25,564 nt of DNA from a virus (taxonomy: Duplodnaviria; Heunggongvirae; Uroviricota; Caudoviricetes). The stretch lies in IMG/VR virus record IMGVR_UViG_2698536657_000010, positions 1-25,564 of that record, one strand, 5' to 3'. The stretch's first letter is position 1, and every line of letters starts with the position of its first letter. Below are positions 3,001 through 6,000 of this stretch, piece by piece. The position numbers were made by a program.

Positions 3001-6000
3001 TCAGCGATGTTTTTATCAACATTGTCTCCGCTCGCCGGTTTGTGATAATAGCGCCAGCCCTGTGATGCCAGGTCTTCACCGGACGCCAGCAGACTCATCA
3101 GGGTTCGGTTACTGACCGGGGCTTCCGGCTCTCTCTCCGGGCCTTCACCGGAAGGTCCGGTGGGCTTCACCGTATCAGGCTGTTTTCCGGTAATGAATTC
3201 AGCGGTTCTCCCGGCATGCACCAGAATCGCCGTTGCCAGACGGTCGGAAATAATCCCACGGCGAGCCCATGAACTGAAATGGCTGGCCCTGTCCACAGAT
3301 GTCCAGGTCTTCTGGTCATTACGCCACTTTGAACCGTAATAACCGACGGCTTCCTGGTCCGGGTCTTCTGCCGGGTCATTGGTCTGCACATTCGCACCAT
3401 TCTCATCCGTCATTAACGGTACAAAGAAAATGTTCTGCGACTCCTTACCCTTATACCCTCCGTATACTGATGCATACCCTTCCGCATGACGCTGCTTCCA
3501 GAAATACGTTGTGTCCCCGCAAACCCACGGTACCGCTGATGCGCTGCCTCCTGTGCACTGTGATGCCTGACCGGCAAGCTCCGTTCTGAACTGATTCACC
3601 ATCGCACTAAACAGCCCCGGATGCTGCGCATGCGTCCCCACTGCCGCATCACCTTCTCCCTGCATCCACACCACCGCAAGCAGACGGTTTTTCGGGTTCT
3701 TCGCCAGTGCGGCTTTAGTCCGGCTCACCAAATCCTGATACAGCGGCTTACCCACACCCCAGCGCAGTGAATTTTCCGATGCACCGGCTGATTCGCTGTA
3801 TGTGCCGTCTGCACCCGTTGTGAATGCCGAAGCACCACGGCAGCACGGAACCAGCAGAATGCCCGCATTCGCCGGTATAAACGGCAGCAGTTTTTTGGCG
3901 ATATGCAGCCCCTGCCCCACGGTACCGTACTGCCCCTTTGACAGGTCCGCTTTCGGGTGATTTTTTCCACTCATATCCTGCACATCATGCAGACAGTGGT
4001 CCGCCGGAATGATGTCGTTATACTTACAGGCGGCACCTCCCGGTGTCACCGTACTGCGACGCGCCAGCTGCTTAATACGCGGATCCGGACGGTCATATGT
4101 CTCCGGCAGCGGAAGGCCTTCACCATATGCCATGCTGTTTGACTGGCCAGCCAGCGTAATCACGTAGTAATACTCCGGTTCGCTGGTGGCGCTGATAAGC
4201 ACCTCCTTACCATCATCACCGGTTACCACCACCGGCGTGGTGACATCACCTTCAGCGACAATCGCCTGAATAAGTGCTGCGCCATCATCCGTATACGAAG
4301 AAAACGGCCCGCCGTATGGCTGCCATCCTTCACGAATTTTTTGAGCAAGCGCATCCGCAAGGTCTGACGGCGATGCCGCCCTGACCACATCGTAGTGTTT
4401 AAATGTCATGAATCCTCCCGGTCGGGATAATGTTGTTAGTCGGATAAGGAGCGGGCTGAAGTCCGGAAGTTACAGGACAATGACAGGAGGAAGACTACAG
4501 CCCGCAATACGAAAAAGGCCACGCAGTTGCGCAGAGTGATTACTGTCGGGTATTATTCGCCAGCTGAAATATTACTTCACGTTTTGTTGTTTATTCCTTG
4601 CTGCCCGCGTCTCCCGGCGCGGGCTTTTTTTATCCATAAGAAAGCCCCTCCGGAGAGGGGCTGACGCTACATATCTGTTAATCATATACATGGTGCCGGG
4701 TGCCTCCCGGTGAGTTCAGTATCAGCACCTGAACCCGCACAGAAAGGATAAGGGATATAACCAACCACCTGTCGCTGATATGCCCCTCCGCTCAGGGGGA
4801 TTCACCATGCAGGATTTTTTTAACAAATTCTCAGTCGGGCAGACAACCTGCAACTGACTGAATTGTGACATTGATTACACTGTAACTACATTGCTGCACA
4901 CCACGAAACCAGCAATGCTTCTGATATTAATTAAACTGCACTTCAGCAAATCCTGAACCTGACGCACAGGTATTTGATTTGATTGTTACCGTCATTCCTG
5001 TTAACTGTGCGCTTTGCAGTAGCGGTTGCAGATTCCAGCGGTTAGTCCAGTACTCTTTCCCGGCCACTTTTACTGTGAATGTATCATTCTCATTATACTT
5101 AGAGAACTCAATTTTACCTTTTGCACAATCAGCTGCCATTGCATTAACAGAAACAAAAGCAAATAAAGCCGCTACAAATATCTTCTTCATATTTAACTCC
5201 TGTTATTCTCCGGATGTATTTAAAGAGTGAGCCCTGCGATTCAGAAAAGCAGCTGCGGTATTACTTTCCCATAAAGTATTGTTTATCCTTATAACTGGCC
5301 TGTCGCCAGTTATCTGACATTCTGGTTGTATCTCTTCATTCACGGCGCGAACGGAACGCGCCCCCTGATGATGGCAATTCAGTATAACCGCCACTGTGCC
5401 CAGTATCGCTGATATATTATTAAAGGATATTCGCCCCACTCTGACACCACCCTCTCCCCGAAACTCAGGAAGCACATTACTGATTCTCCCCCAGTTCAGT
5501 GTGAGGTCCACTTCTTCCGGTGTCATCGTATAAACAGGAGCAGTTTCAGACAGTGCCAGACGAAATTCTCTCTGTATTTGCCTGAACCGTAAGGCTTCTG
5601 CTGTGACAGTGACAAAACGCAGAACTGCTCTGGATGCATCTCTGGTCATGGCATTTCCACTAAACTCCATTAACGCCAGATATGATGAAACCAGTGAGTG
5701 ACGACTGATTTGCATTCCGGAACGTTCCAGCGCTGCGACACGTTGCAGAGTGGTATAACTGCTGTCCGTTGTCATGGAGACAGTTGTCACACCGGGCACT
5801 GATATATGTGCAAAATCTGAAAATCTGTAGAAAGTATTTGTTGCCGTATTAACGAATCCGGCCACATATAAATTATTTTGCTCAATAATCAGACGAAGAT
5901 GGTCAAAACGCGCCTGATAGACATCAAGCCCTCGTATATCCACAGCAAAATAACTGCCCGGTGGGGTGTGGTTAATAACAGACACCGATGTGGTCCCCTG

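Follow-up and report, generated by a model that had tools for sequence, protein, structure and literature searches.

Lambdoid prophages of Escherichia coli O157 Sakai carry convergent pairs of Hfq-binding small RNAs (sRNAs), which sit between a moron coding sequence downstream of pR' and a conserved open reading frame (ORF) (Tree et al., 2014, PMC4104026). In the Shiga toxin 2 (Stx2) phage Sp5 the pair consists of EcOnc27 and the antisense RNA AsxR, the latter located 282 bp 3' of stx2AB (Tree et al., 2014). A later review named such pairs "dyads", counted them in at least eight Sakai prophages and called their rationale unclear. Antisense peaks of Hfq cross-linking and analysis of cDNA (CRAC) were also recorded for EcOnc08 and EcOnc21 in Sp4 and for EcOnc42 in the Stx1 phage Sp15; the three are entered as homologues, each of about 271 nt on northern blots (Tree et al., 2014, Table S2), and share the northern probe AATAATATCCGACAGTAATCACTCTGCGCAATAGC (Table S3 of the same study). 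The stx1AB genes have been described as "bookended", with EcOnc42 lying 3' of the toxin (Sy et al., 2020), and a 2021 review gives the targets of EcOnc42 as unknown. Eleven copies of STnc100, the sRNA family to which EcOnc27 is homologous, are expressed in strain EDL933, and the antisense partner is not mentioned there (Hücker et al., 2017). On antisense or small RNAs of nanS-p, the literature yielded a general review only. Here we analysed a 25,564-nt stretch of a Caudoviricetes genome (IMG/VR record IMGVR_UViG_2698536657_000010, positions 1 to 25,564; hereafter the window), in which a GC-rich hairpin followed by seven thymidines lies at 4603..4631 on the plus strand between stxB and nanS-p. 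We regard this element, with high confidence, as the Rho-independent terminator of a plus-strand sRNA that is the window's copy of EcOnc08/EcOnc21/EcOnc42 and runs antisense to the phage late operon.

The window shows an Stx-phage late region in reverse complement, with stxA, stxB and nanS-p all encoded on the minus strand. The hairpin is opposed to both of its neighbours, the upstream moron gene stxB (87 aa; 4927..5190, minus strand) and the conserved downstream ORF nanS-p, which encodes a yjhS-like sialate O-acetylesterase (2433..4409, minus strand), as the initial annotation had stated. The gap between the two genes is also real, and measures 517 bp (4410-4926) rather than the 520 bp given there. 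Plus-strand positions 4603-4624 read GCCCGCGTC-TCCC-GGCGCGGGC and are directly followed by TTTTTTT at 4625-4631. The stem has nine pairs, eight G-C and one U.G, closed by the 4-nt loop UCCC, and the stem-loop has an energy of about -18 to -19 kcal/mol on the plus strand. The plus-strand RNA of the hairpin folded at -19.2 kcal/mol (z = -3.8), a value equalled by none of 200 shuffles. In a consensus scan, 4603-4631 ranked first among the terminator-like sites of positions 1..12000. When strict terminator criteria were applied to both strands of the whole window (a stem of 8 or more pairs, 7 or more of them G-C, and a T-run of 6 or more), it was the sole site, and 200 first-order Markov simulations of the window produced no such terminator. 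Sequence, scan rank, fold and simulations thus all bear out the earlier description of a strong GC hairpin with a T7 tract.

Two signals at the level of sequence, the T-run and the U8.G15 wobble, give the element its strand. The T-run is 3' of the stem on the plus strand only. The wobble likewise pairs only in the plus-strand RNA, which is why the plus-strand hairpin is the more stable (-18.0 kcal/mol versus -14.4 kcal/mol for the minus strand); six of eight hairpin variants showed the same preference for the plus strand. On the minus strand, A7 stands 5' of the hairpin and AGCAAGGAAU comes after it, with no U-tract, so that the features of a bidirectional terminator are not found. The hairpin and a T-run of 6-12 nt were kept in all of about 140 copies. 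Within the stem, 57 sequences have GC and 3 have AU at pair 261-270, and at pair 262-269 there are 57 with UG and 3 with UA; the variant GCCCGCATCTCACCATGCGGGC combines the compensatory change from G-C to A-U with that from U.G to U-A and still forms 8 bp. Some cryptic copies (Sp15 type) have an A.G mismatch in the stem. The loop-closing position varies among G, A and T, and the G of the window, which gives the ninth pair, was found once among the 84 copies sampled. The GC-rich, short-loop stem, the U-tract directly 3' of it and the compensatory and wobble changes are those of an intrinsic terminator; 4603-4631 is by anatomy a strong unidirectional intrinsic terminator on the plus strand, and it is conserved as such.

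The setting of this terminator is that of a dyad. A full-length match to STnc100 (Rfam RF02076, 148.5 bits), the sense-strand partner and a homologue of EcOnc27, EcOnc05 and sRNA103, covers 4839..4632 on the minus strand and ends in its own terminator hairpin (4662..4643, minus strand). Its 3' end at 4632 directly adjoins the T-tract, the two opposed terminators being 11 nt apart, and stxB and nanS-p lie on the flanks. The hairpin at 4603-4624 is outside the STnc100 model, since the RF02076 match stops at 4632 and is on the opposite strand. In RefSeq E. coli homologues, the STnc100 region is devoid of annotation beneath the match. The initial annotation had called the plus-strand terminator an orphan, which reflects a gap in annotation and not the biology: it is tail to tail with STnc100 and corresponds to the end of the published EcOnc08/21/42 homologue. 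It had also noted that no plus-strand gene is annotated upstream, and this holds for public annotation, the RefSeq homologues having no feature beneath the plus-strand region and Rfam having no matching family. The hairpin appears orphaned because neither database annotates the plus-strand RNA.

Homology to the published RNAs was evident from alignment. In a seven-locus alignment, the window, phage 1720a-02, an Stx2a phage, Sakai Sp4 and Sakai Sp15 share one cassette with a GCCCGCG...CGCGGGC hairpin, whereas Sp5 and 933W carry the AsxR cassette instead. Identity between the window and the Sakai loci Sp4 and Sp15 is 91.6% over 275 nt and rises to 96-97% in the final 69 nt. The target of the common EcOnc08/21/42 northern probe, in RNA sense, is present at 4523..4557 on the plus strand with 3 mismatches to Sakai, a match found in none of 100 shuffles. 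The complement of the probe is exact in Sp4 and Sp15, on the strand opposite that of the late genes. The homologous T-tracts in Sakai (NC_002695.2) are at 1179936 (minus strand) and 2924336 (plus strand); in Sp4, where the T-tract ends at 1179936, the Hfq-CRAC peak EcOnc08 spans 1179938-1180010, its edge only 2 nt away. The proposal of a short antisense RNA that arises in the stxB to nanS-p gap and stops at the hairpin is thus supported, in that the homologous Sakai RNA is Hfq-bound and detected by northern blot, and that the plus strand of the window contains the target of its probe as well as its terminator.

On the northern size of about 271 nt, the 5' end of the RNA would be near 4361, within nanS-p and at the onset of a conserved block. 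The maximal extent of the antisense sRNA, as a homologue of EcOnc08/21/42, would then be 4361..4631 (plus strand), complementary to the entire nanS-p 5' untranslated region (UTR) and perhaps also to the first ~16 codons of the gene. The equivalent of the EcOnc08 peak, a 3'-terminal and presumably Hfq-bound segment, has its body at 4562..4602 (plus strand), within which a U/G-rich, largely unpaired stretch, CGUUUUGUUGUUUAUUCCUUGC, is a candidate seed. Folding left the U/G-rich stretch 4579-4600 unpaired, and its alleles follow CGTTT[T/C][G/A]TTGTT[T/C]ATT. A terminator hairpin with its U-tail is the standard Hfq proximal-face module of enterobacterial sRNAs. The T7 tract at 4625..4631 (plus strand) is the expected proximal-face site, and the hairpin together with T7 probably also serves as the Hfq-binding 3' module of this sRNA. 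An internal hairpin at about 4504..4532 (plus strand), CGCAAUACG-AAAAAGGCC-CGCAGUUGCG, lies under the equivalent of the EcOnc21/EcOnc42 CRAC peak, and its A-rich loop could be an ARN-type Hfq site. Among the unique alleles, 31 have A-U, 19 have U-A and 10 have A.A at one of its pairs, the last being the mismatch that the window carries.

Several observations weigh against the assignment or limit its reach. Outside the terminator, covariation was nearly nil (a term of -1.87 kcal/mol in RNAalifold), because the sequences are too alike, and consensus folding over 275 nt did not discriminate the strands (-58.2 for plus and -62.1 for minus). Positions 4361-4660 form a block with conservation of 90% or more, while deeper nanS-p codons vary at the third position; part of this conservation may serve the minus strand, because the region is the nanS-p 5' UTR as well. 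No sigma-70-like promoter was found for a start near 4361, the only predicted starts being 4438, 4563 and 4580. The offset between old and new Sakai coordinates was derived from probe positions and not by liftover. Rfam has no model for the EcOnc08/21/42 family, so that the homology rests on alignment and the literature. Plus-strand transcription, Hfq binding and transcript size are likewise those published for the homologues, and would apply to this phage by analogy.

Other sRNA identities were examined and rejected. AsxR and AgvB (RF02703, RF02702) would have been expected from position, and a permissive Rfam scan gave no match to either at E of 1 or less in 4380-4940; as a positive control, the same scan of Sakai Sp5 returned AsxR at 88.1 bits, directly abutting STnc100, and AgvB at 40.9 bits. 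The slot and the promoter geometry of the window agree with AsxR/AgvB, whereas the covariance models do not. Plus-strand Rfam matches to sRNA71, suhB, OmrA-B and others scored at most about 22 bits, a chance level, and came from the terminator alone. The plus-strand RNA is not one of the Pas sRNAs described in a 2026 preprint: PasA and PasC lie beyond nanS-p on its other side, and PasD is a relative of STnc100.

The hairpin might instead work on the minus strand, within the late stx-nanS-p transcript, as a stability or processing element that protects, for example, STnc100 at its 3' end or a processed nanS-p mRNA at its 5' end, with T7 being incidental; a stability hairpin of this kind had been offered in the initial annotation as the alternative. 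The site does lie in the late transcript between STnc100 and nanS-p, its reverse complement also folds (-15.9 kcal/mol), and the whole 275 nt folds slightly better on the minus strand in consensus. Yet that fold is unexceptional (z = -1.97, with 10 of 200 shuffles as good) and weaker than its plus-strand counterpart, the wobble becoming a C.A mismatch. The 6-12 T are always on the plus side in about 140 loci and are needed by no minus-strand role, and the homologues have a published Hfq-bound plus-strand RNA ending there. We therefore consider a minus-strand function improbable. Quite improbable, too, is that the hairpin and the STnc100 terminator act mainly as a bidirectional insulator that keeps transcription from reading through from the toxin moron into the lysis module or the reverse, the plus-strand RNA being a by-product with no regulatory role. 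Two strong terminators placed tail to tail 11 nt apart would suit such a function, and at least eight Sakai prophages have this arrangement in the same position, its purpose being described as unclear. Against this, the hairpin is unidirectional, the homologous plus-strand RNA binds Hfq in vivo, the upstream body and promoter-like hexamers are conserved, and the sister cassettes at the same site, AsxR and AgvB, are proven trans-acting regulators.

A small protein gene on the plus strand would offer another reason for a terminator here, and a 43-codon ORF does exist at 4408..4539, its 43 aa retained in most alleles. That it is the gene in question is very improbable: it has no Shine-Dalgarno sequence upstream, its ATG simply mirrors the nanS-p start within the palindrome TCATGA, and the best promoter candidate starts downstream of that ATG. 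In addition, about 13 of 60 unique alleles have a frameshift, a truncation or an ATA start, and substitutions are largely non-synonymous. As to a chance inverted repeat next to a chance T-run, weak terminator-like matches are indeed frequent (26 observed versus 11 expected in shuffles). This site is however the only one of its strength in the window, none appeared in 200 simulations, and many phages retain it with compensatory change; the chance explanation, to which we give next to no credence, is effectively refuted by this conservation. The preferred reading is thus the terminator of an EcOnc08/21/42 copy.

The exact 5' end or ends of this RNA can be proposed from promoter predictions. The best sigma-70-like candidate for the long isoform is ATGTCA-17-GATAAT at 4403..4431 (plus strand), with a start at about 4438 and a predicted RNA of 194 nt; it overlaps the nanS-p start codon and ribosome-binding site on the other strand. 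A second putative promoter, at 4527..4556 (plus strand), has a -35 element TTGCGC, an 18-nt spacer and a -10 element TATTAT, and would start a short isoform of about 70 nt at 4562/4563. The geometry of this promoter is shared across cassettes. At exactly 18 nt after TTGCGC, TAAAAT follows in 35 of 35 AsxR-type loci and TATTAT in 140 of 140 EcOnc08-type loci. The 5' end of AsxR, taken as the start of the Rfam AsxR match, is 6 nt downstream of the TAAAAT hexamer; the 5' end of AsxR has been mapped by 5' rapid amplification of cDNA ends (Tree et al., 2014). The predicted short species, about 70 nt long, would line up with the 73-nt EcOnc08 peak, and would be invisible to the published probe, because the probe lies upstream of the 4562/3 start.

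These features raise the possibility, which we put forward tentatively and hold as rather doubtful, that the slot from the -35 TTGCGC (4527-4532) to the STnc100 3' end is an exchangeable cassette site with fixed promoter geometry. The EcOnc08-type cassette would then also make an sRNA of about 70 nt (4562/3-4631), the counterpart of the 54-60-nt AsxR/AgvB, with the allele-variable seed CGUUUUGUUGUUUAUU for C/A-rich targets. If so, different prophages would plug different regulators into one scaffold. Among about 175 related loci, the cassette between TTGCGC and the STnc100 3' end seems to be swapped as a module. An IMG/VR scan anchored on the nanS-p leader gave 120 loci, with a cassette of the EcOnc08/21/42 type in 84 (about 70%) and of the AsxR/AgvB/EcOnc03 type in 33; one was interrupted by an IS1-like element and two were too short for classing. 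In one prophage (IMG/VR UViG_2526164619_000010, about 1374-1394 and downstream), the end of the IS1-like element (GGTAATGACTCCAACTTACTGATAGTG...) comes right after CACGTTTTG in the antisense sRNA, and the seed region and terminator are lost.

Matches to the stxB-nanS-p gap region as a whole, this segment included, occurred in about 1,200 of the 5,426 complete genomes of E. coli, generally in multiple copies, and none of the 5,426 had a full-length match to the gap above 94%. The closest phage over 4300-5000 was 1720a-02 (94%).

A working model can be drawn from the arrangement. The plus-strand sRNA would end at the 4603-4631 terminator, antisense to the phage late operon, and would form with STnc100 a convergent, non-overlapping dyad abutting at 4632. 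With the opposed terminators only 11 nt apart, each sRNA would end before running antisense into the other, and the paired terminators may thus keep the two from overlapping. Q-modified RNA polymerase passes intrinsic terminators. In lytic growth, polymerase of this kind coming from pR' would read through both terminators, so that late transcription of nanS-p and the lysis genes would not be blocked by the dyad. The long isoform, perfectly complementary to the nanS-p leader, could act in cis, for example as an antisense of that leader, and the allele-variable, unpaired U/G-rich stretch 4579-4600 could be a seed for targets in trans.

Further elements of the late region and the rest of the window were recorded. 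The toxin at 4927..6300 (minus strand) is an Stx2 variant with a B subunit of 87 aa, and is about 93% identical in nucleotides to the Stx2a and Stx2d phages that align over the full length. Upstream of stxA, further terminator-like hairpins with T-runs are found at 6222..6241 and 6578..6594 (both minus strand), in positions that match the terminators annotated in 933W upstream of the stx genes (tR'/StxS region). ARAGORN predicted a single tRNA-Ile(GAU) at 6254..6331 (minus strand), also upstream of stxA, where the BLAST homologue is annotated as tRNA-Arg; the Rfam tRNA model had no match at gathering score anywhere in the window. Three tRNAs (ileZ, argN and argO) are typical of Stx2 phages at that place, and the tRNA of the window may be degenerate or remodelled.

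Matches to C4 antisense RNA were present at 11548..11635 and 19915..20002 (both minus strand; 68.7 and 75.1 bits), so that two C4-type immunity RNAs are contained in one 25-kb prophage stretch. An isrK match (11671..11745, minus strand, 57 bits) adjoins the first C4 copy. A naRNA4/REP-type element at 25475..25552 (plus strand, 76.6 bits) is at the extreme end of the window, and suggests that the prophage-chromosome junction is in or near its right end.

The element is already known: it terminates EcOnc08/21/42, the RNA that makes up the antisense half of the prophage dyad. It brings little new biology, and its value is mainly one of annotation, as a published Hfq-binding sRNA next to a Shiga-toxin gene is in neither RefSeq nor Rfam; the residual interest is in the role of the family and in a possible short, AsxR-like isoform. 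EcOnc08/21/42 and the RNA of the window have the same position and orientation, antisense between a moron and a nanS-p homologue and convergent with an STnc100-type sRNA, with the same terminator and T-tract and a retained probe target. They differ in that the window copy follows an Stx2-variant toxin, whereas the Sp15 copy follows Stx1 and the Sp4 copy a non-toxin moron; the window copy also has the rarer loop-closing G, which gives a 9-bp stem in place of an 8-bp one, and 3 mismatches in the probe region.

STnc100 (RF02076; EcOnc27, EcOnc05, sRNA103; PasD-related) is the other half of the same dyad, prophage-borne and Hfq-binding as well, but it is a separate RNA on the opposite strand with its own terminator (4662..4643). 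AsxR and AgvB occupy the same dyad slot in other prophages (Sp5/933W, Sp10, Sp17), where they too run against the late operon and meet STnc100 tail to tail. Like the window, they place a -10 hexamer exactly 18 nt after a -35 TTGCGC and end in a GCCCG...CGGGC hairpin with a U-run, and they are Hfq-dependent. Unlike the window, they have another cassette sequence with a conserved GUAUCUCAUGC motif, which the window lacks. Their transcripts, which sponge a core sRNA, are 51-60 nt long, compared with the published ~271 nt of EcOnc08/21/42. Generic convergent terminator pairs likewise place two hairpins back to back, both GC-rich and both followed by a U-run on their respective strands; they stand at the ends of protein genes, whereas the pair described here serves two sRNAs inside a long, antiterminated phage operon.

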